Assembly: GCA_023484045.1 (NCBI GenBank)
Contig: JAMDAA010000015.1
Location: forward strand, 8,659 to 72,658
DNA length: 64,000 nt
Reading direction: 5' to 3'
DNA from: Patescibacteria group bacterium
Lineage (GTDB): Bacteria; Patescibacteriota; Microgenomatia; Levybacterales; UBA12049
Shown: positions 18,956-45,553 of the stretch, piece after piece
Position numbering within the stretch: position 1 is the stretch's first letter
How the letters are laid out: each line of letters begins with the position of its first letter
Position numbers and translations under genes: made by a program
Notes under the pieces: generated by a model
Databases searched by the model: none
The model's input: the letters and a program-made list of their open reading frames with translations, nothing else
What the model was told of the DNA's origin: nothing

Positions 18956-18956
18956 G

Positions 18957-21936: not shown

Positions 21937-23293
21937 AAAGATTAATTCGATTTGTAACTCCTTCTGCTTTTACGGGAAAACTCTCCAATAACTTACAAGA
22001 TTTTAAAACCAAGTCTTTGTTAAAGATTTCGTCGATAACCTTTTCCTCAATACTTATTTGAGGATAAGATACTCCGTGAGAAATAATAATCGTCTTTTTT
22101 TGAACCGCTTTTTTTGTCAAAAATTCTTTGTCTAAAATTTTTTTGGTAAAAAAATATTCATGGGCATCTGTAACGCCTTGAAGAGGGGGGATTTTAGTAA
22201 CGTACAAAAGCGCAGGCGTTATATCATTGACACCGTATAAATAGTCGGGATTTTCCTTTCGAATCAATTGCACGATTTTTTCAAAATTTTCGACTTTTTG
22301 TAGATTTCTGTAACCGGAGAAATAAACAGAAATATTTATAAGAATAAAAATAGACACAATAAAAAGAATAATCGGTCTTTTAAAATTAAGCTTTTTTGTT
22401 AAAAAATTATAAAATTCGTAAAAAGAAAGACAAAGAAAAGGGACTAAAAAATTAAGATATAAATAATACACGTCCTGAAAACCGAAGAAAAAAATAATGG
22501 AAGAAATTGAGACTAACGCAAAAAAAGTACTTTTTCTAATATCCAGAAGATTAAATATCAATATCATAAAAAGTAGAAAATCCTTACTTATAAAAAACCA
22601 CGCAACCTCGTTTTTCATAATTCCGGAAGGTCGGGAAAGTGAAAATCCAAAAATATCTCCAAAAAATTCCTTCGGTGCAAAGATTAAAAATGGGAGAACG
22701 ACGATAAAACCAGTTACTATAAAAGCGATGGAAAAGTTAAATATTTTTTTGTAATTTTTCTGTAAAATTAGGTAAACGAAAAAAGAGAAAGCGATTGGAA
22801 TATAATATGCTTTGGTAAGAAATGATAAGGCCATAAATACTCCGGATAAAAAATATTTTTTCTCCTGAAGAAACAAAAAACCTAGCACTGCAAATAGTGA
22901 GGCGGTAAAAACTCCTGTTTGATGATCAGATGTAGACAGGACAATAAAAGAAAAAATGTAAAGCGCAGAGCTTGTTAATGAAAGAAGAATATCCTTTGTT
23001 TTTTTATAAGTTATAAAATAAATAAGAGTAGTTATAATCATTACTTCGATTGCGGATGTAATATAAAAAATTTCGATATTTTTATTAGTCAATAAATAAT
23101 ACAAAGAGGATATATAAGAGAAAAAGGGAAAATTTGAAAAGAAAATATCTCTGTAAAGCAATTTTCCCTGGAATATTTGATAAACATCATTAAAATAAAT
23201 ATTTGTGTCGGAAAGACGAACGCCAATGTTTAAAACTTTTATAACGAAAAAAAATCCTAAAAAGCCGATAAGAGGAACGAGGCCTTTCTTCAT
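21923..23293 (-). CDS. GT-C fold glycosyltransferase-like membrane protein (PMT_2/ArnT-like)
   Basis: Multi-TM. First loop 'YFNDVYQIFQGKLLYRDIF' is paralogous to 'YGDEGIYQVVGMGINNNRLLYRDIW' of 54212..55669. Soluble C-terminal domain. Confidence 0.55.
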   Translation of the reverse strand: MKKGLVPLIGFLGFFFVIKVLNIGVRLSDTNIYFNDVYQIFQGKLLYRDIFFSNFPFFSYISSLYYLLTNKNIEIFYITSAIEVMIITTLIYFITYKKTKDILLSLTSSALYIFSFIVLSTSDHQTGVFTASLFAVLGFLFLQEKKYFLSGVFMALSFLTKAYYIPIAFSFFVYLILQKNYKKIFNFSIAFIVTGFIVVLPFLIFAPKEFFGDIFGFSLSRPSGIMKNEVAWFFISKDFLLFMILIFNLLDIRKSTFFALVSISSIIFFFGFQDVYYLYLNFLVPFLCLSFYEFYNFLTKKLNFKRPIILFIVSIFILINISVYFSGYRNLQKVENFEKIVQLIRKENPDYLYGVNDITPALLYVTKIPPLQGVTDAHEYFFTKKILDKEFLTKKAVQKKTIIISHGVSYPQISIEEKVIDEIFNKDLVLKSCKLLESFPVKAEGVTNRINLFKCY

Positions 23294-24342
23294 TTTTTGA
23301 TTTTTAGAATTAACCAGCGAAGTTTATCTGCGATTTTATAAAATTGATAAGTAAAAGGTTTAATCACTAGGTCATAGCTTCCGACGAATTCGACGAGTCT
23401 TGGTCCGTATCCCTGTTTAAAACGGTGAAACCCAAACCATGGATCATTTGCGTCCGGGTTTGGTCCTAAAGATCCCCACATATCAAATTTTTTAAGTCCC
23501 ATTTTTTTACCAAATTTTATTACTTCCCACATCATTAAATTAGATGCCATAACTTCCCGGTTTTCACTCGACGACGCGCCGTATGGATAATATAAGGTAT
23601 CATGAAAAATAAAAACAATCCAGGCGGCGAGAATTTTTGAATTATATTTTGCCAAAAAAAGACGAGCAGTCAGTTTGTCTTCCGAAGGCTTGTCCTGAGT
23701 TTGTCGAAGAGTCTCCCACATTAACTTGTGATAATTTTCGTTATGGGCAAAAAATTTCTGCCTGCTTGTTGTTACTTTTGTGAGCCTTAGATATTCTTTA
23801 AACGCTTCTTCGGAATTATCTTCGATTATTTTGACATTATGTTTTTGAGCGACTCTAATGTTATAACGCGTTTTAGGATGCATATTTTTTAAAAGTTCAT
23901 CCTCTGATTTTGTTAAATCGAGCTGAAAAGTATATTTGGTAAATAAGGGATGAGCAGAAGGCCTAAGGCCTAAATTTACAATTTTTAATTTACTCGCCTC
24001 GCTTCGCGGGCGAAGCGGGCAATTTTTAATATTGTCGACGTTTGGCTCGAGTTGGATAAATATACAATTTTCCTCTTTCCCGATTCTTTTAAGTTCATCG
24101 AGAATTTCTTTATCCGGTAATTCTCCCTTTGGAAAATAGCCGATTGTCAGGTTTGTTTTTGGAGTCTTATGAACAGTCAGCTGGAAGCCCGATTTTAATT
24201 TATTTTTTTCATAAAATCCTTTTCTTATTACTTTAAGACCTGTTTTTTCCCGAAATTTTCCCCATTCAAAAGACTGAAGGGGATGGGTCACGATTTTATT
24301 AAATTCTTTTTTTTCTTTTTCGGTTATATTTATTATTTTCAT
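23290..24342 (-). CDS. FemAB-family peptidoglycan interpeptide-bridge peptidyltransferase-like protein
   Basis: 'THPLQSFEWGKFREKTG' matches the FemX/FemAB N-terminal 'FLQS.EWGE.K' motif. About 350 aa, typical for the family. Confidence 0.7.
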   Translation of the reverse strand: MKIINITEKEKKEFNKIVTHPLQSFEWGKFREKTGLKVIRKGFYEKNKLKSGFQLTVHKTPKTNLTIGYFPKGELPDKEILDELKRIGKEENCIFIQLEPNVDNIKNCPLRPRSEASKLKIVNLGLRPSAHPLFTKYTFQLDLTKSEDELLKNMHPKTRYNIRVAQKHNVKIIEDNSEEAFKEYLRLTKVTTSRQKFFAHNENYHKLMWETLRQTQDKPSEDKLTARLFLAKYNSKILAAWIVFIFHDTLYYPYGASSSENREVMASNLMMWEVIKFGKKMGLKKFDMWGSLGPNPDANDPWFGFHRFKQGYGPRLVEFVGSYDLVIKPFTYQFYKIADKLRWLILKIKK

Positions 24343-26232: not shown

Positions 26233-26904
26233 ATGAAAAAACTTTTCATAATTGCTAATTGGAAATCAAATAAAACAGAACATGAATCCATAAAATGGAT
26301 TCAAGAATTTCCAATTTCCTCCCGCTCAGCGGGACAATTTCCAAACAATAAAGAAATAATAATATGTCCTTCTTTTGTTTATCTCCCGCTTCTTAAATCA
26401 TATATCCTAGATCATAATTTACCGATAAAATTGGGGACACAGAATATTTCGAAATTTGACGAAGGTGCTTATACGGGCGAAATTAACGGAAAACAAATAA
26501 AAGACTTTGCCGATTACGTGATTATCGGTCATTCGGAAAGAAGACAAAATTTTTCCGAAAGTGAGGAGACGATTAATAAAAAAATCGAGCAGGCAAAAAA
26601 ATACAGACTAACGCCGATTCTCTGTGTCCAAAATCCAGATTTTAGAATTTCACAAAAGATAGAAATTATTGCTTACGAACCGGTTTTCGCAATCGGTACA
26701 AACTATCCGGACACGCCGGAAAATGCGAGTCTTGTCTCAGCTGAAATTAAGAAAAATAGTTTATCAAATCATGTTGTTTATGGAGGCAGCGTGACTTCGA
26801 AAAATGTAAAAGAATTTACCCAAAAATCTAATATCGACGGAGTTTTAGTCGGCAATGCAAGCTTAGATCCTCTCGAGTTTTTCGAAATCATAAAAAATGC
26901 GTAA
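26233..26904 (+). CDS. tpiA: Triosephosphate isomerase
   Basis: 'IIANWKSNK', catalytic 'IIGHSERR' and 'AYEPVFAIGT'. The ORF-track start at 26122 overlaps pcrA. The ATG at 26233 (MKKLFII...) is the real start. Confidence 0.85.
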   Translation: MKKLFIIANWKSNKTEHESIKWIQEFPISSRSAGQFPNNKEIIICPSFVYLPLLKSYILDHNLPIKLGTQNISKFDEGAYTGEINGKQIKDFADYVIIGHSERRQNFSESEETINKKIEQAKKYRLTPILCVQNPDFRISQKIEIIAYEPVFAIGTNYPDTPENASLVSAEIKKNSLSNHVVYGGSVTSKNVKEFTQKSNIDGVLVGNASLDPLEFFEIIKNA

Positions 26905-27991
26905 AAAGAAAGTCCTGATTATCGTTTTAGTCATTACATTATTTGTGCTTATAAAAGCGGGTTTGAGCTTGAGTAAGTATACGCCGGTTTTATTTCAATT
27001 AATTTTTAACCGCGACATTACACTTAAAAAATCAGATCATAATATTAATTTACTGCTTTTGGGGATCGGAGGAGGAAAACACGAAGGGCCGAATTTAACA
27101 GACACGATAATTTTTGCGAGTCTCGACCCCGAAAAAAAAACCGTTTCTCTTGTTTCGATTCCGCGGGATCTTTGGGTTTCGGATATCGACGGGAAAATTA
27201 ACACTGCTTATTCGATCGGAGAAAGTAAAAAAACAGGCGGTGGAATTTTGCTAACCCGTGCGCTTGTTTCTAAAATCCTTGGTCAACCGATCGATTACAC
27301 GATTAGAGTCGACTTTGATGGTTTTGTAAAAGCAGTTGATTCAGTTGGAGGATTAGATATCGATGTCGAAAACACATTCGACGATTACGAGTATCCGATC
27401 GAAGGCAAGGAAAATGATGCCTGTGGACACACAGAAGAAGAGATACAGGTGCTTGCGACGAGTTCTTCGATGGTTGACGCTTTTCCCTGCAGGTATATAC
27501 ATGTTCATTTTGACAAGGGCCTACGGCATATGGACGGAGATACTGTTTTGAAATTTGTCAGATCAAGACACGCAAAGGGGGAGGAAGGAACGGATTTTGC
27601 AAGAAATAAGAGACAGGAAAAGGTTATTGCTGCATTTAAAAATAAGCTTTTTTCAACAGATGTAATTTTAAATCCGGTAAAAGTCGTAAGTCTTTATTCT
27701 GCGATCAGCGATAATGTTGATACAGATATAGAGCAGACAGAATTTGATGATTTTGTGAGACTCGCGCAAAAGATGAAAGACGCAAAAATCCAAAGTATTG
27801 TTTTAGATACCGATAACGAAAAAAATCAGGGAAGCGGATTATTGATAAATCCGCCGATAGGAGAAGAGTATAACAATCAGTGGGTTTTAATTCCAAAACT
27901 CGGCAATAATGATTTTTCCGGAATTAAAAATTATGTCGCGTGCGAGATAAAAGCGGAAAATTGCCCGAGCATTAATTCAAAGAAGAATTGA
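26897..27991 (+). CDS. LytR-CpsA-Psr (LCP) family cell-envelope polymer transferase
   Basis: N-terminal TM. 'INLLLLGIGGG...TDTIIFASLDPEKKTVSLVSIPRDLWV' is the canonical LCP core. Confidence 0.85.
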   Translation: MRKKKVLIIVLVITLFVLIKAGLSLSKYTPVLFQLIFNRDITLKKSDHNINLLLLGIGGGKHEGPNLTDTIIFASLDPEKKTVSLVSIPRDLWVSDIDGKINTAYSIGESKKTGGGILLTRALVSKILGQPIDYTIRVDFDGFVKAVDSVGGLDIDVENTFDDYEYPIEGKENDACGHTEEEIQVLATSSSMVDAFPCRYIHVHFDKGLRHMDGDTVLKFVRSRHAKGEEGTDFARNKRQEKVIAAFKNKLFSTDVILNPVKVVSLYSAISDNVDTDIEQTEFDDFVRLAQKMKDAKIQSIVLDTDNEKNQGSGLLINPPIGEEYNNQWVLIPKLGNNDFSGIKNYVACEIKAENCPSINSKKN

Positions 27992-30158
27992 TTTTATAGA
28001 TTCTGGTCTGCCCGTTTTCGTAAACGATTTTACCAATCTCGCTAAATTTATCTTCATATAGAGCAGGATATTTTTCGCGCTCTAAATCGCCGACAAAAAC
28101 ATAAGAAATTTTGTATTTATCGATCAATTGCTTTACTAGATCGATATCTATCATTTCGTAAAGCTCCTTAACTTCGTTTATTCTCGGGGCTGGAATATCA
28201 TATGTTCCGCGCCACAACCACTCATGCACTGTCCAGCCTAAAACCGTCGGAAGACCTGTATTTGCTGAAACGCGGGCATAATTTGTGTAGGAATCACCTT
28301 GCGCTTCTAGAATTACAGGCTGATTTTTAATATTTTTATTTATCCAAAGAATCGCTTCGTAATCAGTCGGATAAAGTTTTTTTAGATATCGGGTTCCATC
28401 TAGTCCGTGGGTGATCTGTAAATTACCGTAATAAGAATTAATCGCAAAATATGGATAAACTGCGATTAAAAATAATCCGATACTACCAATAAATACAAAT
28501 ACTACTAATATTAAATTTTTAGTGAAATTTGATATTAATCGGAAAATAATATAACCGGAAGAAAGAGAAAGCATAATAAAAGCTTGGTAAACTAGCTTAA
28601 ACATCGTATTCGCGCGGTAATGGGCAGGATAGATGTCTTTAATATAAATAAATTCAGGGACGATTATAAGTAAAGTAGAAATAGAGATCAGAATAAGAGT
28701 AAAAAAATCAGCGACGGGAATTCGATATTCGTGTTTCGATTTTATTTTTTTAAATAAAACAATAATAAAAGCTATTGCCCAAAAATAAAAAAATCCATAA
28801 AGAATAGAAAGTTGCCATATTGGTGATTTTTGGCAATGATCGGCCTCGAATAAAAACGGTCCGATTTTTCCGATGTCGGTTAAAAATTTTGGCGCACATA
28901 AAACCCCGATTCCTGAAGCAAATGGTTTGAAGAAAATATTAAATGGAAGAGAAAAAATAAAAAAACAAATAACGATAATAAATATTATTTTTAATAATTC
29001 ATAAAGTTTTGTTTTAAAAAGCAACTCCTTGTTTAAAAATATGATAGAACCAAGCACAATTATACTGAGTAAAGCGTATATAGCACCATCCCAGGCATTG
29101 GTCATGTAAGCGGCCGCGATTAAAAAAGATACAACAACAAGTTTTTTTATATTAATTCTTTGACTCAAAAATTCATTCAGCAATAATGCGATTATTGTTA
29201 ATATTATCGGAATACCCAAAACATGTCCGTGAAGGTCTGATACAACAAACGAATAGATTGGAAATTCATGAATGGTGTTGTAAATAAAACGGGTGGCGTT
29301 TGGGTACCAATATGCGTTGGGAAATGTTTGTGGTGAGAAGATGAGTTGCCAAAAAGGAACAGGATTTTCATTGGGATATGGTTTAAAAAATGTGTAAATC
29401 GGGTGTAGATTTCCTCCGAGAGAAACCAAGAATGCTGTTAATAAGCCGCCCAATAAAATTTTGAGATTCGAGATTTTTGACTCGAATTTTCGATATATAA
29501 GGTTTACTCCGATCGAAAAAGACATAGCAAACGTAAAAGCAAACAAAGTTGCGAGCATTAAGTTATATGTTATCTGTGATGGAATTCCGGATATTTTTGT
29601 TAAAACAGCAGTTATTAAATGACCGAAATAATAATAGTTGATCGAAAACGGCGTGAACCACATATCTTTCGGCGGGAAATAGTCACTTCTTAAAATCGAA
29701 TTGACAAATCCAAAATCCATGAACTTTTCGAGTCCGTTAATATCGGGCTGGAAATTTCTGATATACGACCAAAAAAATAATCCGGCAACGAACAATAACT
29801 CCTCGAAAACAAATATTTTCCATTTTCTTTTGAACAACTCAGTTGCTGGTTTTAAGCTCAGTAATTTAGTTTTTAAATATGGATATAAAAAATAATTCGC
29901 GGAGGTGAGTAAAAGTAAAATAATAATCGAATTTAATCTTGTGAATTGCGCGATATGAGTTACTCCTAAAATAAATATTAGATAAGAAGTAATAATCGCG
30001 CTTATTATTTTTGAAAAAATATACCCCCGATCAAAAAAATTATGAAAAATGTATATAGAAAACGGCAAAAAACAAAAACCGATTATGAAAAACAATAACC
30101 ACCAATTAGCTGTAAAAAGTAAATCTAGAGATTGCATATTATTTTTTAATAACCCCAA
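27972..30158 (-). CDS. Large polytopic membrane protein with C-terminal soluble domain (DUF2298-like; GT-C-related)
   Basis: 728 aa with more than 12 TM segments, then an approximately 130-aa hydrophilic C-terminus. Last gene of the long minus-strand operon. Confidence 0.5.
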   Translation of the reverse strand: MGLLKNNMQSLDLLFTANWWLLFFIIGFCFLPFSIYIFHNFFDRGYIFSKIISAIITSYLIFILGVTHIAQFTRLNSIIILLLLTSANYFLYPYLKTKLLSLKPATELFKRKWKIFVFEELLFVAGLFFWSYIRNFQPDINGLEKFMDFGFVNSILRSDYFPPKDMWFTPFSINYYYFGHLITAVLTKISGIPSQITYNLMLATLFAFTFAMSFSIGVNLIYRKFESKISNLKILLGGLLTAFLVSLGGNLHPIYTFFKPYPNENPVPFWQLIFSPQTFPNAYWYPNATRFIYNTIHEFPIYSFVVSDLHGHVLGIPIILTIIALLLNEFLSQRINIKKLVVVSFLIAAAYMTNAWDGAIYALLSIIVLGSIIFLNKELLFKTKLYELLKIIFIIVICFFIFSLPFNIFFKPFASGIGVLCAPKFLTDIGKIGPFLFEADHCQKSPIWQLSILYGFFYFWAIAFIIVLFKKIKSKHEYRIPVADFFTLILISISTLLIIVPEFIYIKDIYPAHYRANTMFKLVYQAFIMLSLSSGYIIFRLISNFTKNLILVVFVFIGSIGLFLIAVYPYFAINSYYGNLQITHGLDGTRYLKKLYPTDYEAILWINKNIKNQPVILEAQGDSYTNYARVSANTGLPTVLGWTVHEWLWRGTYDIPAPRINEVKELYEMIDIDLVKQLIDKYKISYVFVGDLEREKYPALYEDKFSEIGKIVYENGQTRIYKINSSLN

Positions 30159-31647
30159 TATAAAAAGCTGGTCTTCCGTTTGGATAGTTTATCGTTTTTT
30201 TAATATTGAAATCAAAGCCATGAATCTCGCTTATTCGATCGTATCCTATTGCGAAAAGTTGATGCTTATTTTGGTCGAATGATTTTAGATCTCCGATAAG
30301 GCATTTAGATTCACATTTGTTTTCAGGGTCATAAAATTTAACAAAAATATTTGGTGAATTAAAATTGCCCATAATAAACATATTATCATACTGATTCTTA
30401 TTTTTTATAAAGTACTGCATGATAGGTTTTGGTCCATACTGCCATCCCCAAAAATCGGATGAATACAAAGGATATTGAATAAAATAAAATTTTGTGAAAA
30501 AGATTAAATTAATCGAAATAATAGAGACAATCATTGTGACAAGAGCAAAACTATTGATAAATCGTTTCCCGTATTGTGTCAAGATAGTAATACCGAGGCC
30601 AATAAATATTGCGAATAAAGGTGCACCAATAATTGAGCGACTGGTAAAAGGGGCGTTCGCCGTAACTGTACCTGCTATTGGATAAATAAAAAGCCAATAA
30701 ATTAGAAGTTGAGAGATTTTTTTATTTATTGTCAGAAAGGTGCTTATCAGGCCAACAAATAAAAAAGGAAGCGTTATTTTTAGTAAAGGAGTTAAACCTC
30801 CTGTAAAATGTCGAGTAATAAAGGTGGGTTCGCCTATCATAAAATATGATGGAGAAAGTTGTGCAAGATAATTCTGGATGATTCGTAAAATAGTTTGTGT
30901 AAAAGACAATTTTGCAGAAAAAACGGATACCATATTAAAACGAGCAATGCCCTCTCCGTTAAAAAAACTTAAGATAAGCGGTATGCTCAAGATAAAAAAT
31001 AATAACAATCCAGCAATAGTTTCTTTTTTGTGTAAAAAATATGCTTTCCTATAAATTAATAAAACTCCTATTAAGAGGAACGGTATTAAAAGTCTCGCTG
31101 GTTGATATGTGTATAATGTTAAAGCGGCAAGGATAAAAGCAGGTATAACAAAAAACTTATGACGTGTTGCTTTTATCAATAAAAAAATAGTGGCTATAAA
31201 GAATGTGTTGTAAATCGTGAACTCGAAACCCGTTCTATTGTAATGAATTAACCAAGGCATAGTAGCTGTTATAAAAGCAATTAAAAGCCCAAAACGTTTT
31301 GAGCGAATTTCTTTCCCCAAAAAATACATAAGAATTATTGTTATTAACCCGCAAAAGACCGATGGTAATCTTACGCTTGTCTCATTCAATCCAAAAATAA
31401 ATATAAAAGGAATTGTTAGATAGGTTGCTAATGGAGGGCGATAATCTCCAAAAGACCGAAAGAATATAGGGGAAGAGATACCGTATTCATCCTTTCCGGT
31501 GTTGAGAAGCGAATATGCATTGTAACCGATAGAAGCTTCATCATAGAAAAATCCAGAAGGGATATTAGAAAGTCCATATATTCTTAAAATAAATCCCAAA
31601 AAGACAATAAAAAATAATATTACGAATTCAATTTTTATTCTCCCCAT
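30139..31647 (-). CDS. GT-C fold glycosyltransferase (GT39/GT83, ArnT/PMT_2-like)
   Basis: 'FFYDEASIGYNAYSLLNTGKDEYGISSPIFFRSFGDYRPPL' is the canonical PMT_2/ArnT first periplasmic loop with the DE motif. Confidence 0.75.
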   Translation of the reverse strand: MGRIKIEFVILFFIVFLGFILRIYGLSNIPSGFFYDEASIGYNAYSLLNTGKDEYGISSPIFFRSFGDYRPPLATYLTIPFIFIFGLNETSVRLPSVFCGLITIILMYFLGKEIRSKRFGLLIAFITATMPWLIHYNRTGFEFTIYNTFFIATIFLLIKATRHKFFVIPAFILAALTLYTYQPARLLIPFLLIGVLLIYRKAYFLHKKETIAGLLLFFILSIPLILSFFNGEGIARFNMVSVFSAKLSFTQTILRIIQNYLAQLSPSYFMIGEPTFITRHFTGGLTPLLKITLPFLFVGLISTFLTINKKISQLLIYWLFIYPIAGTVTANAPFTSRSIIGAPLFAIFIGLGITILTQYGKRFINSFALVTMIVSIISINLIFFTKFYFIQYPLYSSDFWGWQYGPKPIMQYFIKNKNQYDNMFIMGNFNSPNIFVKFYDPENKCESKCLIGDLKSFDQNKHQLFAIGYDRISEIHGFDFNIKKTINYPNGRPAFYIGVIKK

Positions 31648-33271
31648 TTAGTATTTGAGATAGTGCTTCCTGAGTTAATCTTTTGGTGTTTTTAAAAATT
31701 ATTACTTTTGGATGATCGTATACTTGGAATGTTTCTTCGCTCGAATCATCTTTTATTGTCAATCCGAATAGCGAAGGATAAGAAGTAAATTCACCTACTT
31801 TTTTATATCCCAATTTTTTAGCAAAAAGCAATTTATAATATTTACTCGTGATCGGATATTTTTTATCGAGATTAATAAGAGTTCCGTATAATCGTCGACT
31901 ATTAATAACAATGTAATCAGCGGTTGATAATTTTTCAGTATAATAATTTATTTTATCGGAATTGTCAGGATCGTATATCGTTAATTGCTCGAATTGATAT
32001 TGGGCGGGGGAATAATTCTTAAAAGAAACAGGGAGGCCATCGTCCCAATGTTCTCCTAAGATTTTACTTCCACTCGGAATATTTTTATAAATCCATTTTG
32101 ACGCCGAAATTCGTGTTTGCTCTTTGACGTATATCGAGAAAAAAGCGAGCGCCCAAAAGATTGTTGTTATTGCGAAGAAATACAATAAAAATTTTCCAAT
32201 AAATTTTGTTTTTTTCGCGATAATATACAGGAGATAACTCGAAAAAATAATCAAAAAAGGTAAAATCGGCACCATAAAGCGTATGAATTTTGTGTGCCAC
32301 GAACCGACGTATAGAAAGTAGACGATCGGGAAAGATAATAAAATTATAAGTTTATAGTCTTTATTTTTTATAAGTTTAATAAAAATTAAGATTAATCCTA
32401 AAGGGATAATTATCGTAATTAATCCTAGTTGCCAGAAAAGATTTATAAACTGGAATAAATAAGAAGGCGTGTTAGTGAATTGAAGCGTATAAGGAACAAG
32501 TAGGGTTCCGAGCGCGACTCCTGATTCATAACGCATCGATTCGAGGAATTTATTCCAGGAAAAAAAAGTATACGGAGAAAAGATTATAAAAATACATAAA
32601 CTGATTATTAAATAAAAAATAAATAACGCGTTTTTTTTGATAAAGTTTTTCCGATCCAGAATTATGTTTATGAGATAAGCGGTTGTCGGCAAAATCAAAA
32701 AAGATAAAGCCGTTGTTTTTGCTGCGACAGCGAGCCCAGTAACGATACCACACCCAATATAATTTTTGAAGCTTGGCTTATTGAGTAGACTTAAAGACAA
32801 TAAAGAAATTATAACAACGGTCAATGCAAGAAAGTTTTCGGTTATTCCAAGATGCGACGTTTGTATAGAAGAAACAGAGAAGGTATAGAAAAAAGCAGAG
32901 ATTAAAGCAACTCTCTCATTAAAAAGTTTTTTTGCGAGAAGGTATAGAAAAAAGATGGTAATAGTAGAATAAAGTGCCGAATAAAATCTTGCAATTAAAT
33001 TAATGTGGCCCCAATCATAGGTCCAGATGGGATTATTAGTTACTCTTACCAGCATATCTCCGGTCGCGCGGATTAAATAAATCGAAAAACCGCCGTAAGC
33101 AAAAAAATCTGGATTTAATTGTTTGAAAAAAGAGATTCTCGTAACGGCATTTGCGATATTTCTTTCGTCGGGGTGAAACATGTTGCCCTGATCCCAATTA
33201 AGATTGTAAAATCTTAAAAAAGCCCCGATTAATAAAAAGACTATCAATATTATTTTTGTTTTAAATTTCAT
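31628..33271 (-). CDS. GT-C fold glycosyltransferase (ArnT/PMT_2-like)
   Basis: 'NMFHPDERNIANAVTRI' first-loop motif. About 13 TM segments and a C-terminal soluble domain. Confidence 0.65.
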   Translation of the reverse strand: MKFKTKIILIVFLLIGAFLRFYNLNWDQGNMFHPDERNIANAVTRISFFKQLNPDFFAYGGFSIYLIRATGDMLVRVTNNPIWTYDWGHINLIARFYSALYSTITIFFLYLLAKKLFNERVALISAFFYTFSVSSIQTSHLGITENFLALTVVIISLLSLSLLNKPSFKNYIGCGIVTGLAVAAKTTALSFLILPTTAYLINIILDRKNFIKKNALFIFYLIISLCIFIIFSPYTFFSWNKFLESMRYESGVALGTLLVPYTLQFTNTPSYLFQFINLFWQLGLITIIIPLGLILIFIKLIKNKDYKLIILLSFPIVYFLYVGSWHTKFIRFMVPILPFLIIFSSYLLYIIAKKTKFIGKFLLYFFAITTIFWALAFFSIYVKEQTRISASKWIYKNIPSGSKILGEHWDDGLPVSFKNYSPAQYQFEQLTIYDPDNSDKINYYTEKLSTADYIVINSRRLYGTLINLDKKYPITSKYYKLLFAKKLGYKKVGEFTSYPSLFGLTIKDDSSEETFQVYDHPKVIIFKNTKRLTQEALSQILNGENKN

Positions 33272-34538
33272 TTCTCTCGATCAATTTAGCTATTTTTTCT
33301 CCCATTTCAATAGCGTAATTTGTCCCCCGGTCCCATGGATAAACCTGTTCCATGTCTACGAGATAAACATTTTCTAAAGGAGTTTCACAAGGTAAAATAT
33401 TTTTTCCATAATTTGTGTCGACTACCGGTTGCGCAAATTCATCCTTAAACAAGCGGTAATCAACCAAAAATTCTTTATAATTTTTATTTATTTTTTTTAA
33501 AAAAGGATCATAAATTCTGATCAACTCATCTTTTGATTTTGAAAATAGTTTATCGTTGGATTGCAGATATTTTCCGAGATAGACAAGATGTTCATTATTA
33601 TAGTTACTCTTGTCGACGAAATTTGTGTGTTCGACGATCGCCATGATCGGCCAGGAGTTGTCGCAAATGCTTAGCCAGTATGTATTATCTTTTAAGAATT
33701 TTTCTTTAAGCCTCAATACTAAATTTAATACTCCGAGTGTTTTTATTTTTTCAGCCTTTTTTCGATAATCGTCCGGTAAGTTTTTTGTGATTTTTAGAAA
33801 TTGACGAGACGGAATTGTTACGATGACTTTATTAAATTCATAAAATTTATTAGCAGTCTTTATCGTGATTTTTTCATCGATTTTTTTTATTTCACTTACT
33901 TCACTTTTGAAAAAAACATTTCCTTTCAACACTTTAATTTTTTTTAAAATTGTATTTTCGAATTCTAAAAATCCGCCCTTTGGATAAGCGAGTTCTGTCG
34001 TACGTTTTTTAATTCTTGCCCAGAACCACGCTAAAGAAATATTTTTTGAAGAGTCGCCAAACTTGCCAATTAACTGAGGTTCCCAAATCATCCCGTAGGC
34101 TTTTTTACCCATCGCTTTCGGTAAAAAATCAGCGGTGTTTATATTCTCAAATATTTTCCAAAACGGATTAAATTTTAAGAAGGCCAAAACAGCAGCCATC
34201 CTTATTCTTTCAAAAATATTTAATTTCGAGAAACTTAATACTTTTGAAGGAGAATCGAGTTGATAAATTTTACCGTCGATGTAAACAGAAGTTTTTGGTC
34301 GGATTATTAAGACATCGTGCTCAATTTCTTTGGCAAAATTTAATGCGTTTTTGTCATTAGTAAAAAAATGATGGTAATACTTATCGAGCGTCCAGCGCCA
34401 ATTTTTTTCTTTAAATCCAGATGCGAGTCCGCCGGGTAAATCGCTCTTTTCAAAGATCGTTACGTCATGGCCTAATTTTAATAAATGTAAAGCTACTGAT
34501 AGTCCTTCGATTCCGGCGCCGATTATCGCGATTTTCAT
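33261..34538 (-). CDS. FAD/NAD(P)-binding Rossmann oxidoreductase (amine-oxidase/UDP-galactopyranose-mutase-like)
   Basis: 'MKIAIIGAGIEGLSVA...IFEKSDLPGGLASGF' dinucleotide-binding motif. 'YHHFFTNDKNALNF' resembles the Glf 'GPHIFHTN' region. The Glf-like call is tentative. Confidence 0.55.
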   Translation of the reverse strand: MKIAIIGAGIEGLSVALHLLKLGHDVTIFEKSDLPGGLASGFKEKNWRWTLDKYYHHFFTNDKNALNFAKEIEHDVLIIRPKTSVYIDGKIYQLDSPSKVLSFSKLNIFERIRMAAVLAFLKFNPFWKIFENINTADFLPKAMGKKAYGMIWEPQLIGKFGDSSKNISLAWFWARIKKRTTELAYPKGGFLEFENTILKKIKVLKGNVFFKSEVSEIKKIDEKITIKTANKFYEFNKVIVTIPSRQFLKITKNLPDDYRKKAEKIKTLGVLNLVLRLKEKFLKDNTYWLSICDNSWPIMAIVEHTNFVDKSNYNNEHLVYLGKYLQSNDKLFSKSKDELIRIYDPFLKKINKNYKEFLVDYRLFKDEFAQPVVDTNYGKNILPCETPLENVYLVDMEQVYPWDRGTNYAIEMGEKIAKLIERNEI

Positions 34539-35926
34539 AAACTAATATTACCGCGGGTTACGAGGAACAAAAGAACGCCAATGGTAGTTGTTGCTATCGC
34601 CGCGATGGCACCGATTATAGCAGATGAACTACCCGGTTTTGCAGGTGCAAGCGTCGGAGTTGCCGATGCCACCGGGGCTTGGGTAATAGTCGGCGTCGGG
34701 GTTAAAGTGGGCGACGGTATTTGTGTCGGAGAAGGTGTCGATAGAATAGGTGTTGGAGTCGACGTTATTTTTATCGTCGGAGTTGCCGATGGGGTCGCCG
34801 ATTCATTAACTTGCGAACCTTGCGCGTAAACGGTAAAAGATTGAGTTATTGTTTTAAGCACGCCGAATTTATCCGGGGCGATTATCGACACCGTGTGTTG
34901 TCCCGGAGAGAGCGTTTTTTGAGGACGGAAACTCCAATTGCCTTTATTGTCAACTATAACTTGAGTTTGAATATTTTCATCAGAATGAATAATCAATTTT
35001 ATACTTGCGCCGGGAGAAGCAACACCTTTAAATAATGGTTGCTGATCCGTAAACTTCTCTTCATCTTTCGGCGTTAAAATCTCGGCATTTTTATTCGATA
35101 CTTGATTTGCAGAAAATGCCGGAAAATTGACATTGGCAGATGCAGAAGACTCTTCTTCTGACACATTGATCGGCGAATTCCCGGTCGTAAAATCATAATC
35201 TTTAGAAAGCGTAATGGTTGGGACGACGTTTATCTGATTAGCAAATAACTTAACATTGGATCTGGCCGAAGGTCCGATAGCTAACATTTGAAGCTTCGTA
35301 TCTTTAGAAATAGGGAAAAAAGACTTAAGATCGTCTGTCCTCAACGCATTTAGTGGGATTATATAACTGCCGTCTCCTTTTACGATCGTCGATGTAGTTT
35401 GGGCTTTTGGGATAGTTATATATACAATTGCTTCTTGAGGATTGGTTCCGTCGGGCATGATTACTTTTCCGACAATCGGCTGTTGTGCAGAAGGAGAAGC
35501 CTCAATATTAGGCGCTATAGTTATCTCAAAAAGTGTTTCATTGTTCTGGAAAGTGTCTTGTCCGGATACAATATTAAAAAAATATTTCGCCGAAGGTTTT
35601 AATCCCCGAACCATAAAATAATGAAGTTTGTACGCCGCGACGTTTCCCGATTGCTGATCCCGTGTGTCCAGCGCCGTCGATCCTAAATTACTCGTTTCAC
35701 CGTAGGAAATCGATCCTAAAACACTCGCGTCTGTTTCGTAAGACACAGTAAAAGAAATTTCAGAAACATTCGTGATTCGGACATTTTTAGGTGTATTGGT
35801 CGGAGAAGCCTTGCTTACAAAAATCGTACCGTTTTTTACGAGAATAGAAGTCACAGTGATACCGATTATTATTAAAAATAATCCCAAAAGTGTCGGTATT
35901 CTTTTTCTCCAGATATTATTTTTCAT
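34535..35926 (-). CDS. Surface protein: N-terminal anchor, FN3/β-sandwich-like domains, Pro/Thr linker, C-terminal PG-[SD]...TM sorting-like tail
   Basis: 'VRITNVSEISFTVSYETD' is FN3-like. Linker 'PTPILSTPSPTQIPSPTLTPTPTIT'. C-terminus 'PAKPGSSSAIIGAIAAIATTTIGVLLFLVTRGNISL'. Confidence 0.55.
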   Translation of the reverse strand: MKNNIWRKRIPTLLGLFLIIIGITVTSILVKNGTIFVSKASPTNTPKNVRITNVSEISFTVSYETDASVLGSISYGETSNLGSTALDTRDQQSGNVAAYKLHYFMVRGLKPSAKYFFNIVSGQDTFQNNETLFEITIAPNIEASPSAQQPIVGKVIMPDGTNPQEAIVYITIPKAQTTSTIVKGDGSYIIPLNALRTDDLKSFFPISKDTKLQMLAIGPSARSNVKLFANQINVVPTITLSKDYDFTTGNSPINVSEEESSASANVNFPAFSANQVSNKNAEILTPKDEEKFTDQQPLFKGVASPGASIKLIIHSDENIQTQVIVDNKGNWSFRPQKTLSPGQHTVSIIAPDKFGVLKTITQSFTVYAQGSQVNESATPSATPTIKITSTPTPILSTPSPTQIPSPTLTPTPTITQAPVASATPTLAPAKPGSSSAIIGAIAAIATTTIGVLLFLVTRGNISL

Positions 35927-36258
35927 GGTGATTTACTCGCTCCTTGTGTGCCTTGCGTAACCGATTCCAGTTGTAAGACAACGGACGGCGTGGGTGTCGT
36001 GATTATAGTAGGAGAGCCAGTTGCGGAATTTGTTTCCGAAAGGCCTTTTTTAAATTCAAAGACAGGAGTTATTTGTTGTCTTTTTTTGAGCATATCGATT
36101 GTTTTTGTGTCGAAGTTAGGATTAATCGCAGATGTTTGGACATTTAATGTTTCGGGAATAGTCGATGTTGCAAAATTATGGTAAATACTGAATATAATCC
36201 AGAATACTACTAGAACAACAGAAGATATTAATAGAAATATTATTTCTCTTTTTTTCAT
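35923..36258 (-). CDS. Small N-terminal-TM protein in the pilNO operon
   Basis: 111 aa. Overlaps its neighbours by 4 bp and 1 bp. Unknown function. Confidence 0.45.
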   Translation of the reverse strand: MKKREIIFLLISSVVLVVFWIIFSIYHNFATSTIPETLNVQTSAINPNFDTKTIDMLKKRQQITPVFEFKKGLSETNSATGSPTIITTPTPSVVLQLESVTQGTQGASKSP

Positions 36259-36259
36259 G

Positions 36260-36874
36260 TTAAGTTTTGAAATAAGCCTTGGCTTTTAGATTCAATTGCA
36301 AGTCATTTTCATTAGATGAGCTTTTGGAAAGAGAAATCGTGTCGATCGTTACGATTCGATCAAAATCACTCAAAGAATAAAGAAAATTTTTTATGTTATC
36401 GTATGTGCCTGTAATATCGACTGAAAAATTAAACGAATAATTTATTGGTTCTTTTTTTGATTCAGAAATTTCGACCTGAGATACTTGAAGTCTTTTAATC
36501 GCAACACCTGAATTTCCCGCAATAGCTTGAATTTGTCCTGCTAAAATTGGGATCATCGGACTTTGCGGGATCGCGGACAAAACGATAGGGATATCGTTTG
36601 TTAATACATTATATTTTTGTTGAAGAATACTCAGGTTATTAATTTTTTCGGTTAATTCTTGGTCAACAAGCTGATTGTCGGCAAGCTGTCTCCTTAAATT
36701 GGATATCGTCGAAAGAGTCGGACTTATCGCAAATAAGCCAAAAACAGAAACCGCGATAAGTGTAAAAGCAATAGTCGTAAATGCTCTCGCTTTTTCCTGT
36801 TTAAAAGTATTCGAGATTACTTTAAGGTATTTCGCGTCTTTTAAATTTTTTAAAATATTTTTACGTGGTTCCAT
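36260..36874 (-). CDS. pilO: Type IV pilus assembly protein PilO-like
   Basis: Cytoplasmic N-terminus, single TM, coiled-coil 'ISNLRRQLADNQLVDQELTEKINNLSILQQKY', C-terminal β-rich domain. Sits directly downstream of pilN. Confidence 0.55.
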   Translation of the reverse strand: MEPRKNILKNLKDAKYLKVISNTFKQEKARAFTTIAFTLIAVSVFGLFAISPTLSTISNLRRQLADNQLVDQELTEKINNLSILQQKYNVLTNDIPIVLSAIPQSPMIPILAGQIQAIAGNSGVAIKRLQVSQVEISESKKEPINYSFNFSVDITGTYDNIKNFLYSLSDFDRIVTIDTISLSKSSSNENDLQLNLKAKAYFKT

Positions 36875-36876
36875 AT

Positions 36877-37431
36877 TTATTTAGTTTTTAATTTTATCGT
36901 TAAGCTTGTAATTATGATTCCACTAGACGTTTTGTTTTCGATTTTATCGATACTAATTGAGTCGGGCTTCAGTTGATTTTTTATAGATTTAATAAAAGAG
37001 GCTAAAGAGGTTATCGATCTGACATCGCCCTCGATTTTTATGCGGTCCTGCGAATATATTAAATTCGAAGTCATGAAATCACTCGGGGTTGATTCTACGA
37101 TACTACTAAATATTTTTGTTGTTTCGTTCCCCTTGTTGGATAATTTTGAAGCGAGAAGAAGACGGTCTTGGAGATCCCGGTACTTCGCTTCGTTTCCCTT
37201 CCAGCTTAATACAATTGCTTGTTTTTGTCTGATTTTATCGTGGAGATCGATCAATTGTCGATCAAGAGAGAAGCGATACAAAAAGGCCGAAAGTGCGATT
37301 ACTTCGGTCGCGATTACGATTAAGCGTCCGATCGTTAACGACCAGGTTATAAATTTTTCCAAAAGACTTTTTCGGTCTTTAAATAAATTGATCGACGGCG
37401 TTTTTGCCATACCAATGCTAAGTAACACCAA
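36877..37431 (-). CDS. pilN: Type IV pilus assembly protein PilN-like
   Basis: N-terminal 'INLFKDRK' (INLLP-type PilM-binding motif), single TM 'LTIGRLIVIATEVIALSAFLY', coiled coil. Confidence 0.6.
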   Translation of the reverse strand: MVLLSIGMAKTPSINLFKDRKSLLEKFITWSLTIGRLIVIATEVIALSAFLYRFSLDRQLIDLHDKIRQKQAIVLSWKGNEAKYRDLQDRLLLASKLSNKGNETTKIFSSIVESTPSDFMTSNLIYSQDRIKIEGDVRSITSLASFIKSIKNQLKPDSISIDKIENKTSSGIIITSLTIKLKTK

Positions 37432-39444: not shown

Positions 39445-39499
39445 AGAATGAATTATAACATGTCTAGAATTTAGTGGGCCTAAGAGGTAAAGCTAAAGA

Positions 39500-39790
39500 C
39501 TATTTAGTTTTCTTAGATTTTGGTTTTTTTGCGGCTACAGGTTTTACGGTCTTTTTTGCCGGCATTAATTTTGAAAGTCTCGATTTAATCCTCGCGGCTT
39601 TATTTTTATGGATAATTTTATTTTTCGCCGCTTTATCGACTGTTTTTGTGGCAATCAATATAGTTTTTTCCGAAGGTTTTTTCCCAGCCTTTTTAATGGC
39701 TTCGCTCAAAAGTTTTTTAAATTTTGCGTTTTTTACGCTTCTTTTCTTGTCTTGTCGTAATTTCTTTTTTGCCGATTTTATTACTGGCAT
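39500..39790 (-). CDS. rpsT: 30S ribosomal protein bS20
   Basis: 'MPVIKSAKKKLRQDKKR...IIHKNKAARIKSRLSKL' matches bS20 ('IKSAKKR' ... 'HKNKAARHKA'). Confidence 0.85.
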   Translation of the reverse strand: MPVIKSAKKKLRQDKKRSVKNAKFKKLLSEAIKKAGKKPSEKTILIATKTVDKAAKNKIIHKNKAARIKSRLSKLMPAKKTVKPVAAKKPKSKKTK

Positions 39791-39824
39791 AGCGTTATTT
39801 TATCATGCTATACTGGTAAATACA

Positions 39825-41492
39825 ATGCCTAAGGATTTTTTAAGAAAAAGCCTCAACATACTTCTTGCCAGACAGACAAACATTTTATCGGCCGCTTTTA
39901 TTATCATGCTGACGATTGTTTTGTCTCAGTTACTCGGTCTTATAAGACAAAGATTATTAGTCAGTATTTTTGGTGCGTCGGATACTTTAGGAGTATATCT
40001 GGCATCACAAAAACTTCCGGATTTTTTATTTCAACTTATTATTGCGGGCGCGTTGTCTTCTTCTTTTATTCCTGTTTTTTCGGAATACTTAAACAAGGGC
40101 AAAGAAAAAGAGGCGCACGAAATGGCTTCGACGCTTCTTGTTTTGTGTTTCGGAATTTTTTTGGTTTTGTCTTTGATCCTATTTATATTCGCTCCGTTTT
40201 TCCTTCACGTATTAAACCTTGGATCGGGATTCTCAGATAAAGAAATGATTTTAATGAGCGATCTAATGAGGATTATTATTTTCGGTCAACTTCTTTTTAT
40301 ACTCGGGACATTCTTTTCGGCAATCTTGCAGTCGTACAATCATTTTTTTATTCCGGGGATCGCAGCGGCTTTATACAATTTAGGAATAATAATCGGAATA
40401 GTTGTTTTTTCGTCGGTTTTTGGGATATATTCTGCTGCGATCGGTGTGGTTTTGGGTGCGTTTATATTTTTTATAGTACAGCTACCGATGAGTAAAAGGG
40501 TCGGATTTTCTTTCCGACCGTCGTTAAAAAACATAAAAGAAGACGGCGTACTGGAAGTTGTAAAACTTATGTGGCCGAGAACCATTTCGATCGCGGTTTT
40601 CCAATTCGGAACGATCGCGACCGTAACACTTATTTCATTCTTGTCATCTCCGGGAAGAAACTACGTAATATTCGATTACGCACAAACCTTAGCGTTTGCG
40701 CCGGTCGTGTTGTTTGGGCAGACGATCGCGCAAGCGGCATTTCCAGTATTATCGAGGGAAAGAGAAAAACTTGAGGAATTTAAGACAACTTTTACGACGA
40801 GTTTTAATCAAATAGCGTATCTTATAATTCCCGTTTCTGTGATTTTTATAGTTTTAAGAGTCCCGGTTATTCGCTTATTTTTCGGCGCCGGACAATTTGA
40901 CTGGAGCGCGACGCTTTTAACCGGAAAAGCTTTAGCAATTTTATCGCTTTCGATCTTTGCACAGGCGCTAATATACCTGGTTTCGCGTGGTTTTTACGCT
41001 TTTCACGACACAAGGACGCCGCTTATAATAGGGAGCGTAACAACAGTCTTAATGCTTTTAGTAAACGCTTTATTTATTTTTGTTTATCATTTTGGCATCG
41101 AGAGCGTTGCGATCGCAACTTCGATCGGCGCTGTAATAAATTTGATATTACTTCTTACATTCCTGGACATAAAAATTAAAGGTTTTAACAGAAAGTTTTT
41201 AATAGTACCATTTGTAAAAATAACTTTGGCGAGTTTTTTAAGCGGTTTTGCGTTGTATATTCCGATTAAGCTTTTAGATCAATTAGTTTTTGATACAACA
41301 AAAACAGTAAACCTTCTTTTCTTAACCGGAATATCGAGTTTTGCGGGACTTAGTTTCTACCTTCTCCTTACGTGGTTGTTTGATGTCAAAGAAGCGAGTA
41401 TGTTTATACATTTGTTTAGAAAAGTGAGCGGCTGGAGAGAGATATTGGGGAAAAGCGAAGAAACGATCGACGGCACGCGAATTAATCCTTAA
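39825..41492 (+). CDS. murJ: Lipid II flippase MurJ/MviN
   Basis: 'LSQLLGLIRQRLLVSIFGASDTLGVYLASQKLPDFLFQLIIAGALSSSFIPVFSEY' is the canonical MurJ N-terminus. The ORF-track start at 39474 is an artefact over rpsT. The ATG at 39825 (MPKDFLRK) follows a TATACT -10-like box. Confidence 0.85.
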   Translation: MPKDFLRKSLNILLARQTNILSAAFIIMLTIVLSQLLGLIRQRLLVSIFGASDTLGVYLASQKLPDFLFQLIIAGALSSSFIPVFSEYLNKGKEKEAHEMASTLLVLCFGIFLVLSLILFIFAPFFLHVLNLGSGFSDKEMILMSDLMRIIIFGQLLFILGTFFSAILQSYNHFFIPGIAAALYNLGIIIGIVVFSSVFGIYSAAIGVVLGAFIFFIVQLPMSKRVGFSFRPSLKNIKEDGVLEVVKLMWPRTISIAVFQFGTIATVTLISFLSSPGRNYVIFDYAQTLAFAPVVLFGQTIAQAAFPVLSREREKLEEFKTTFTTSFNQIAYLIIPVSVIFIVLRVPVIRLFFGAGQFDWSATLLTGKALAILSLSIFAQALIYLVSRGFYAFHDTRTPLIIGSVTTVLMLLVNALFIFVYHFGIESVAIATSIGAVINLILLLTFLDIKIKGFNRKFLIVPFVKITLASFLSGFALYIPIKLLDQLVFDTTKTVNLLFLTGISSFAGLSFYLLLTWLFDVKEASMFIHLFRKVSGWREILGKSEETIDGTRINP

Positions 41493-44017: not shown

Positions 44018-45130
44018 CTATAGTGCTAAGAAAACAAGCGCCCCGATTATCGTAGCCGCGATTCCAAAAGCGCCTGCACCGAGAATAATATCTCCCGGTC
44101 CCGGTGCTTGCGGAGTAGTAACGACTGTAGTCGGAGTTGCTGTGGCCGCCGGCCGTGTTGTTCCGCCCGTTGCACTTCCCCCAGAGATAGTTATTGTTTT
44201 ACTGCAAGTTGCAATATCGCTCACAGCGCCTTTATCGTCTGTTAATACAGCAGATGTGTTAAACGTTCCCGAATTATTAAAAGTATGGGCGATTTGAACG
44301 CTTACGTTATTTGTTCCGATTCCGCCGGCTTGAGTAACATCCTGGACCGGCCCGTCTCCGAAATTAAATGTTGCTTTATTTATCGTGCTATCGGGGTCAT
44401 TACCAGAAGCAGTGAATGTAATCGAAAGAGGAGCTGTTCCCGACGCTTCGCGATCTAAAGCGAAGGACGTACAAACCGGAGATTGATTTGTGGCGCTTGG
44501 AGTGGCAGTTATCGAAGGTTGAATAGTCGGCGTTGGCACTACTCCTCCAATTTTTATATAAGCAGGAATTGTATTTTTTATAGAATTTTCGGTATAAGGG
44601 TCGCCCGCAGCAGAAGATCGCGCTTGAGTCTGCGGTGTGTAACTTATTTCAGTTGGGGCGTCTGTCGCTTCGATCGCGTTAAAAGATATGGTTCCAAGTT
44701 TTGTCGCCGATTGAATAACCTTGGTCGGGTCAGCGCCCTGACTGCTACTTACAATAACAGAAAGCAATGCGTATACGCTCCCCGAATTATATGTTGGACC
44801 TTCAAGCGCGGTTACAACGGCAGAGTTCGGGACAAATCCATTCTGTATAACTGCTAGCTTTTTCGGATCATATTTAATGTAAAGTTTAACGACCGTGATA
44901 ATATTTTTCCCCGGATCCATCATTATGTCCATGTCCGCTTTATCTCCGACGTTTTTTTGTATCGGTGAAGCGAGTGTCGAATCCGGTTTAAAAGAAACAA
45001 CGGTTAAAGGTGCGGCACTACTTCTTATTTCTTGTTGCCTTTGGAGCAAATATAATGTTACAGGTATCGCTCCGAGAAGAACTAAAATAAAGCCTAATAA
45101 AAGTATCTTTTTGCCGGAGAAAAGACTCAT
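44018..45130 (-). CDS. Secreted/anchored PKD-domain protein with Pro/Thr/Ala-rich C-terminus and PG-x-G...TM tail
   Basis: PKD signature 'FNFGDGPVQDV...IAHTFNNSGTFNTSAVLTDDKGAVS'. C-terminus 'PGPGDIILGAGAFGIAATIIGALVFLAL'. Confidence 0.6.
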   Translation of the reverse strand: MSLFSGKKILLLGFILVLLGAIPVTLYLLQRQQEIRSSAAPLTVVSFKPDSTLASPIQKNVGDKADMDIMMDPGKNIITVVKLYIKYDPKKLAVIQNGFVPNSAVVTALEGPTYNSGSVYALLSVIVSSSQGADPTKVIQSATKLGTISFNAIEATDAPTEISYTPQTQARSSAAGDPYTENSIKNTIPAYIKIGGVVPTPTIQPSITATPSATNQSPVCTSFALDREASGTAPLSITFTASGNDPDSTINKATFNFGDGPVQDVTQAGGIGTNNVSVQIAHTFNNSGTFNTSAVLTDDKGAVSDIATCSKTITISGGSATGGTTRPAATATPTTVVTTPQAPGPGDIILGAGAFGIAATIIGALVFLAL

Positions 45131-45295: not shown

Positions 45296-45553
45296 ATGTT
45301 TATAGATAATAAAAAGTTTTACGGTTCAACCACCGTTGGAGAGAAGGGTCAGGTAGTCCTCCCAGCCGATTTAAGGCGAGATCTCAAAGTTGAGGCAGGT
45401 GATAAATTGGCTGTTTTGGTTTTGAAAAAGTCAGGTTTTTCGGGTATCGTCATGATTCAGACTGGACTTCTCACTGTTATTCTCGAGAAGTTTTTCGGCG
45501 GGAAGTTGGCAGAATTTATTAAAGATAAGAAATCGACAGAAAAAGTTAAATAA
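45296..45553 (+). CDS. AbrB/MazE/SpoVT-type small DNA-binding protein (paralog of 13655..13909)
   Basis: 'TTVGEKGQVVLPADLRRDLKVEAGDKLAV' shares '..G[EQ].GQ[VM]VLP....R....[IV].AGDKLAV' with the arsM-linked paralog. Confidence 0.6.
   Translation: MFIDNKKFYGSTTVGEKGQVVLPADLRRDLKVEAGDKLAVLVLKKSGFSGIVMIQTGLLTVILEKFFGGKLAEFIKDKKSTEKVK

Follow-up and report, generated by a model that had tools for sequence, protein, structure and literature searches.

We propose that the C-terminal tails of two surface proteins, encoded in a 64,000-nucleotide stretch of DNA from a Patescibacteria group bacterium of the Levybacterales (contig JAMDAA010000015.1; the whole stretch is referred to here as ‘the window’), are divergent members of a Levybacteria-wide sorting signal that derives from the LPXTG motif of sortase substrates and comes in two subclasses; as a rough estimate, we give this reading a probability of 0.6. 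Candidate phyla radiation (CPR)/Patescibacteria bacteria are thought to rely on surface contact with their hosts and, to our knowledge, the anchoring of their surface proteins is largely unknown. Descent from LPXTG-type signals appears highly probable, judging by the motifs that orthologues carry. The mechanism itself is already known; what is new is a tail variant that standard annotation models miss.

Both open reading frames (ORFs) and the ends of their tails lie where an earlier sequence-only reading of this DNA had placed them, as confirmed by the ORF ends and motif coordinates:

34535..35926, (-) strand: family-1 surface protein (ORF1), 463 amino acids, ending ...TPTLAPAKPGSSSAIIGAIAAIATTTIGVLLFLVTRGNISL
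34631..34645, (-) strand: PAKPG of ORF1, at the LPXTG position of its orthologues, with the Gly invariant; in the disordered linker directly before the terminal helix
34553..34627, (-) strand: class A hydrophobic segment of ORF1, a predicted helix (residues 434-458) that ends at Arg458
34538..34555, (-) strand: short basic C-terminal tail of ORF1, RGNISL
44018..45130, (-) strand: family-2 surface protein (ORF2), 370 amino acids, ending ...TPQAPGPGDIILGAGAFGIAATIIGALVFLAL
44099..44113, (-) strand: PQAPG of ORF2, at the L-[PA]-x-T-G position of family-2 orthologues, with the Gly invariant (119/119)
44021..44098, (-) strand: class B downstream segment of ORF2, made up of PGD and a Gly-rich hydrophobic stretch running to the C-terminal ...VFLAL, without a basic residue

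From its N-terminus, ORF1 consists of a helix, three beta-sandwich domains (FN3-like, middle and Big_13), a Pro/Thr linker and a class A tail; ORF2 has an N-terminal transmembrane (TM) segment, a cohesin-like region, a PKD domain, a Pro/Thr linker and a class B tail. Their bodies are unrelated (FN3/Pur_ac_phosph_N plus Big_13 as against PKD, with cohesin in orthologues), which bears out the claim that two unrelated surface proteins are involved. What they share is an N-terminal hydrophobic segment (signal or TM) and a Pro/Thr linker, and no other ORF in the window combines such a linker with a terminal hydrophobic segment. In each case the motif sits in the linker just before the terminal helix and follows a secreted body, with its Gly 32 (ORF1) or 27 (ORF2) residues from the C-terminus; hydropathy gives a TM-like segment after the motif in both tails. 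An AlphaFold2 model of ORF1 (mean pLDDT 79) agrees with this layout, placing a helix at residues 6-31, three confident beta-sandwich domains at 47-366, a disordered linker that holds PAKPG at 372-433, and the terminal helix at 434-458; Foldseek searches with this model returned generic tandem FN3 stalks only.

Taken by itself, a P-x-x-P-G following a Pro-rich linker is statistically unremarkable; the significance of the window tails comes from what their orthologues preserve, above all the Gly, and not from the window motif alone. Homologues number more than 500 for family 1 and more than 170 for family 2, all of them from Patescibacteria/Microgenomates and many named as Levybacteria, and their tails fall into two classes. 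Class A, which comprises most of family 1 including ORF1, follows the pattern [LIP]-[PAS]-[PAS]-[PT]-G-[NS]-[SP]-[ST], then some 20 hydrophobic residues and [TS]-R-G-x-x-S-L; an Arg or Lys is found within the last 10 residues of 92/98 class A orthologues, ORF1 having Arg458. Class B, to which all of family 2 (including ORF2) and 22/120 family-1 members belong, reads [LIM]-[PA]-x-[TP]-G-P-[GTS]-[DEN], then a Gly-rich hydrophobic stretch and a C-terminal ...LLFFAL, and Gly residues of its helix are conserved (G353, 97%; G363, 100%). The motif Gly is invariant in all 355 tails (98/98, 22/22, 119/119 and 116/116), and at 4.24 and 4.32 bits its column carries more information than any other in the C-terminal third of the two proteins.

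The homology of these tails to LPXTG signals is apparent at the motif position itself, where literal LPPTG, LPATG, LAPTG and LPDTG are common in orthologues. Of the family-2 tails, 64/119 fit the pattern [LIMV][PAS]xTG; among family-1 class A tails 20/98 do so, and 16/98 have LPxTG. Across lineages T, P, S, A or V can precede the Gly: Thr predominates in family 2 (T 81, P 35; n=119) and Pro in family-1 class A (P 59, T 23; n=98). The P-x-x-P-G of the window is a minority form (15/98 in family 1, 2/119 in family 2), and because orthologues show LPXTG-like residues at the same position, we read it as a drifted L-P-x-T-G, apparently through Thr-to-Pro and Leu-to-Pro replacement.

The sequence-only reading had described one shared tail, and this holds in part: the two tails belong to separate subclasses (A with a basic tail, B with none) and the direct hidden Markov model (HMM) similarity of the window pair is weak (E=0.017 in one direction, no match in the other), yet cross-class tail HMM matches reach E of about 2e-6 and we therefore regard the two classes as related. 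Where family 1 has class B tails (22 proteins), the sequence is LAPGGNS-PGPDGK... (e.g. L008 10001..11461 and L015 10001..11374); the first part resembles a relic of the class A motif (L-A-P-x-G-N-S) and the second the beginning of class B, as would result from the grafting of a class B tail downstream of an older class A motif.

For specificity controls we used a set of 1,664 ORFs, comprising those of 50 Levybacteria loci and the window; the cross-class matches above come from the same set. The tail HMMs for both classes, a check that the sequence-only reading had proposed, found further members in this set, all in families 1 and 2 and always at the C-terminus. LPxTG-like strings occur 71 times, 44 of them within the last 45 residues of a protein; 34 of these 44 precede a TM, and all 34 belong to families 1 and 2. 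The idea that the tail helix is itself unusually conserved was ruled out by an internal control, in that the tail hydrophobic segment averages 2.2-2.7 bits, as compared with 3.25 for the PilO TM, 3.43 for the N-terminal TM of family 2, and a range of 2.7-3.4 for ordinary single-pass TMs of the same genomes; constraint falls on the motif and not on the helix.

An exhaustive search of 1.84 billion representative sequences with the class B tail profile (E<=1e-3) produced 127 matches, of which 126 end exactly at the protein C-terminus. Once the tails are removed, 99 of the bodies are family-2, 10 are fragments, and nine are unrelated and fall into three families (a Cys-rich family of ~300 amino acids, FN3, and Cys-repeat). 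All nine carry a Thr-Gly motif followed by P-[GNE]-[DN], with LP[PA]TG in seven, LAPTG in one and LLPTG in one. The class B tail is thus found on at least five unrelated body types, and family 1 alternates between class A and class B tails; such swapping and reuse looks like the behaviour of a portable sorting signal. Cys repeats like those of one of the unrelated class B-tailed proteins (P0247) also appear in the window, in a 600-amino-acid surface protein (5182..6984, (-) strand) that has a Pro/Thr linker, then a C-terminal Cys-rich module (CNQTCGSNGYECDGNLTC...), and no TM tail.

These results bear directly on the notion that the likeness of the two window tails arose by chance, each being a generic TM anchor placed after a Pro-rich linker. 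In a linker with 30-40% Pro a P-x-x-P-G is not improbable, and the window tails are only weakly similar to one another when compared directly; at the level of the families, however, conservation and the invariant Gly refute it, the tail HMMs gave C-terminal matches only, with no false positives among the 1,664 ORFs, and the tail recurs on those multiple body types. We consider the probability of a chance resemblance to be negligible.

Curated models point in the same direction as the orthologues. Orthologue tails touch sortase-type models only (TIGR01167 LPXTG_anchor, EF0750_LPXTG, SpaH/EbpB pilin and Microco_LAVTG): against the TIGR01167 cutoff of 15.9 bits, one class A orthologue tail passes at 18.5 bits, with others at 13-14 and class B tails at 8-11. 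Family 2 also has a weak match to the NCBIfam model CPR_pilus_PamR (25 bits, cutoff 300), a resemblance at the level of domains only, and PamR identity was rejected.

The sequence-only reading had likened the architecture to that of exosortase and archaeosortase substrates, such as PGF-CTERM proteins, whilst correctly observing that the canonical PEP-CTERM and PGF-CTERM motifs are absent: the window sequences run on as PGS and PGP, not PGF, and models for PEP-CTERM, PGF-CTERM, GlyGly-CTERM or related signals gave no match in any search at E<=10. Processing at the Pro-Gly by an intramembrane or polytopic enzyme of the exosortase, archaeosortase or rhombosortase type would fit a Pro-Gly that adjoins a Gly/Ala-rich helix and, superficially, the class B tails, which resemble rhomboid-type substrates in lacking a basic tail and keeping helix Gly residues at G353 and G363. 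Set against this, orthologues read LPXTG and the lineage has a classical (PF04203) sortase, and no exosortase, rhomboid or CPBP gene was seen in the window or in the ~1.8 Mb of related loci, which were inspected for other purposes; the searchable literature, moreover, holds no link between exosortase, archaeosortase or rhombosortase and CPR. The PGF-CTERM-like interpretation is accordingly not supported, and we regard processing of this type as very improbable. The alternative offered alongside it, a lineage-specific sortase-like processing signal, fits both the LPXTG-like tails of orthologues and the sortase that shares their contigs.

A sortase family is reported to occur almost throughout the Microgenomates (Meheust 2019, PMC6744442). 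A metagenome scan for family-1 loci yielded one contig (L123) that holds family 1, family 2 and a sortase (18809..19549, 246 amino acids), the last scoring 74.1 bits against PF04203 (cutoff 26.6) and 60.4 against TIGR01076 (cutoff 39.35). These are generic sortase models; the cutoffs of the class A-F models are all missed, with best scores of 65.9/160 for class C, 42/165 for class D, 37.6/160 for class E and 18.8/166 for class F. Its family comprises 2,130 homologues of about 243-246 amino acids, named in their sources as sortases of Levybacteria or Patescibacteria, and the catalytic triad (His158, Cys227 and Arg236) is conserved at >=97% at each position. Two further contigs join sortase and tail: JAUSEF010000090.1 (124 kb) has sortase P0457 and a family-2 protein, P0159, of the Pro-type (TMVPG|PGS), and k141_1913287 (European Nucleotide Archive, 306 kb) has sortase P0384, a Pro-type family-2 protein, P0205 (AMAKPG|PKE), and a Thr-type family-1 gene (NIPPTG|NSS). 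From these shared contigs it follows that the sortase is kept in genomes with Pro-type tails, and this sortase family is the probable enzyme for the tails discussed here.

The usual context of the sortase is AlaRS, a single-TM protein of ~770 amino acids, the sortase, a conserved 45-amino-acid ORF, pyrimidine-nucleoside phosphorylase and YceG. It is always translationally coupled (8-bp overlap) to the upstream single-TM protein, which is of 750-775 amino acids and without a Pfam family, as in the following loci:

L123, 16564..19549: coupled large protein and sortase
L142, 3684..6732: coupled large protein and sortase
L146, 3717..6735: coupled large protein and sortase

This coupled protein was considered as a dedicated sortase substrate and ruled out, its TM being central and a C-terminal tail absent.

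Families 1 and 2 lie ~6 kb apart in most genomes, so that their tails could be paired genome by genome. Among 43 unique pairs, both proteins have T before the Gly in 19 and neither has it in 13, with T/non-T in 1 and non-T/T in 10, an association with an odds ratio of about 25 (Fisher p=3e-4, phylogeny not corrected for). Matching pairs include IAPSG in both proteins of L066, and PAKPG with PQAPG in the window. A strict Thr/Pro co-variation between the families is weakened by a counter-example (L148); the association remains. Such co-variation would be expected were a single partner to recognise both proteins, and we take it to be suggestive.

Several observations weigh against a sortase signal at work in the window, and these are best considered together. 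The window pentapeptides have only their Gly in common with LPXTG, and neither the full window proteins nor their isolated tails match any curated C-terminal sorting-signal model (E<=10). Classical sortase signals have a basic tail; it is present in 0/259 class B tails, and ORF2 likewise has none. A Pro before the scissile bond is not documented as a sortase substrate in the searchable literature, and for this reason, together with the missing cationic tail of class B, whether the PxxPG forms of the window are still cleaved is uncertain. As to the enzyme, no sortase, exosortase, archaeosortase, rhomboid or CPBP protease is encoded in the 64 kb of the window, the second, third and fourth being those that the sequence-only reading had envisaged, and relatives instead carry the classical sortase; nor is there a sortase in the 2.6 kb beyond the window's left end, where two unannotated genes encode polytopic membrane proteins. 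Of 130 family-1 loci, only L123 has a sortase within 10 kb (regular-expression and then HMM scan, ~1.8 Mb), and adjacency of sortase and substrate is not a conserved feature; contigs of the unrelated class B-tailed proteins P0312, P0332, P0247 and P0300 have no sortase or are too short. Finally, Thr-type and Pro-type tails occur together on one sortase-bearing contig, with other sortases of that genome not excluded, and therefore either the enzyme is tolerant or the Pro-type proteins are uncleaved.

The second of these options leads to the most substantial alternative, namely that the tails of this genome are uncleaved membrane anchors, in which LPXTG has decayed to PxxPG and the Pro-Gly serves as a helix-breaking junction, the proteins themselves being membrane-tethered stalks. 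The loss of the L, P and T of LPXTG from the window pentapeptides would sit well with such decay, as would the absence of a basic tail from class B, the ordinary conservation of the tail hydrophobic segment set out above, and the highly conserved N-terminal TM that family 1 also possesses; a study of CPR pili similarly treats the C-terminal helices of CPR surface proteins as simple anchors (10.64898/2026.03.03.709456). Neutral decay, however, would not leave the Gly invariant in 355/355 tails with T, P, S, A or V before it, the sortase is kept in Pro-type genomes, and the residue preceding the Gly co-varies within genomes between the two unrelated proteins, which speaks for a common partner and against independent drift. 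On balance we judge uncleaved anchors to be a less probable explanation, albeit one with an appreciable chance of being correct.

Returning to the sortase reading, we suggest the following model. Export would proceed via Sec, directed by the N-terminal signal, with the C-terminal hydrophobic segment retaining the protein in the membrane; a membrane-anchored sortase (a Cys transpeptidase with the His/Cys/Arg triad) would then recognise the pentapeptide ending in the invariant Gly, cut before that Gly and transfer the protein to a peptidoglycan precursor, such that an FN3/Ig or PKD stalk would be displayed on the wall of the monoderm cell. ORF1 would enter this route as a class A substrate with a classical basic tail, and ORF2 as a class B substrate, which lacks one and carries an acidic residue at +3. 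We infer that it is the Levybacteria sortase that acts on the tails, that this enzyme accepts a Pro before the Gly, and that the genome from which the window comes encodes it. We also speculate, and here we are decidedly doubtful, that Levybacteria possess an unclassified sortase with its recognition relaxed from L-P-x-T-G to essentially x-x-x-[T/P/S/A]-G and two signal subclasses, one of them without a cationic stop-transfer tail; were this true, a sortase that forms its acyl-enzyme on the carbonyl of a Pro would be a biochemical novelty and might prove of use in sortase-mediated ligation. Proteins of the two subclasses may be sent to different destinations, being for example wall-linked in one case and membrane-retained or associated with the pilus machinery in the other.

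The window has a low GC content (about 0.35) and an envelope gene set typical of monoderm CPR. Family 1 is the fourth member of an overlapping four-gene cassette, seen in 47/50 Levybacteria loci and usually followed by an amine oxidase, the first three genes being:

36877..37431, (-) strand: pilN-like gene
36260..36874, (-) strand: pilO
35923..36258, (-) strand: small TM ORF, 111 amino acids

CPR lack PilQ (PMC6744442), and family 1 may be a wall-spanning stalk that is associated with the type IV pilus machinery in a lineage without this protein.

Glycosyltransferases of the PMT_2 type (protein O-mannosyltransferase-like) are clustered at 30139..31647, 31628..33271, 21923..23293 and 3035..3490, near to a DUF2298 protein (27972..30158), an LCP ligase (26897..27991) and FemAB (23290..24342); all of these adjoin surface proteins with Pro/Thr linkers, and such linkers may be O-glycosylated.

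Elsewhere in the window (20633..21400, (+) strand), a small S26-type peptidase comes directly after a nickel superoxide dismutase (Sod_Ni, E=4.5e-45) and is probably its maturation protease; together they form an oxidative-stress module in a CPR genome. A Lys-rich ORF at 39500..39790 ((-) strand; MPVIKSAKKKLRQ...) reads like ribosomal protein bS20 and is overlapped on the other strand by a long MurJ ORF with a GTG start (region 39474..39900); as only the part from about residue 162 onwards matches Pfam MurJ, MurJ itself probably starts near 39.9 kb. Two small ORFs are of the MazE/AbrB-like antitoxin type (13655..13909, (-) strand; 45296..45553, (+) strand; Pfam MazE_antitoxin, E about 1e-5), the second of which has family 2 on one side and an HlyD/FtsX/ABC efflux operon on the other.

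A small group of conserved surface proteins is marked out by this lineage-wide, LPXTG-derived signal; annotation pipelines label them by their Ig, PKD or FN3 domains only, the curated LPXTG model missing the two-subclass signal. A dedicated pair of HMMs for class A and class B tails would better predict the surface proteomes of Microgenomates and, if the Pro-for-Thr variants are truly cleaved, the known specificity of sortases would be extended. The value of this is practical, for the annotation of CPR surface proteomes, together with a modest chance of a sortase with unusual specificity.

How, then, do these tails compare with established systems? The pilus proteins PamC, PamD and PamR of CPR (10.64898/2026.03.03.709456) also combine Ig/FN3-type folds with a C-terminal helix, and are proposed tethers in a monoderm envelope; their helices are read as permanent anchors with no motif reported, unlike the Levybacteria tails. 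The PGF-CTERM/archaeosortase A, PEP-CTERM/exosortase and GlyGly-CTERM/rhombosortase systems share the tripartite plan, in which varied secreted proteins carry a motif, a TM and then the C-terminus, and a Pro-Gly by the helix; the Levybacteria tails differ in having no PGF, PEP or GG motif, no model match and a consensus of LPXTG. Signals of those systems usually end in a basic cluster and their enzymes are polytopic membrane proteins, none of which was seen here; for GlyGly-CTERM/rhombosortase in particular, there is no model match, class B lacks the basic cluster, and no rhomboid is present in the window.

Variants of the LPXTG motif are well established, and include the (S/P)PXTG of Clostridioides difficile SrtB and the LAXTG of the class E sortases of Actinobacteria. 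In both, the first two positions vary by lineage together with the enzyme, and the LAPTG common in family 2 is reminiscent of class E; these variants keep a Thr before the Gly, unlike the Pro-type tails of Levybacteria, and the class E model gives the Levybacteria enzyme the sub-threshold score reported above (37.6 bits, cutoff 160).

With respect to the LPXTG/sortase system of Gram-positive bacteria (TIGR01167, PF04203), the differences are that the Gly of the Levybacteria tails follows a Pro as often as a Thr, and sometimes a Ser, Ala or Val; that the Leu and Pro of the first two positions are often gone (as in PAKPG and PQAPG); that class B lacks a basic tail and continues in a fixed G-P-G-[DE]; and that the curated LPXTG model misses nearly all of the tails, with the sortase reaching no class A-F cutoff. 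What the two have in common is the same extreme C-terminal place after a Pro/Thr-rich, wall-spanning linker, the same layout of a pentapeptide ending in Gly and a hydrophobic segment of ~20 residues (with the basic tail in class A), and, in many orthologues, a literal LPXTG or LAXTG, with a His/Cys/Arg sortase encoded on the same contigs.

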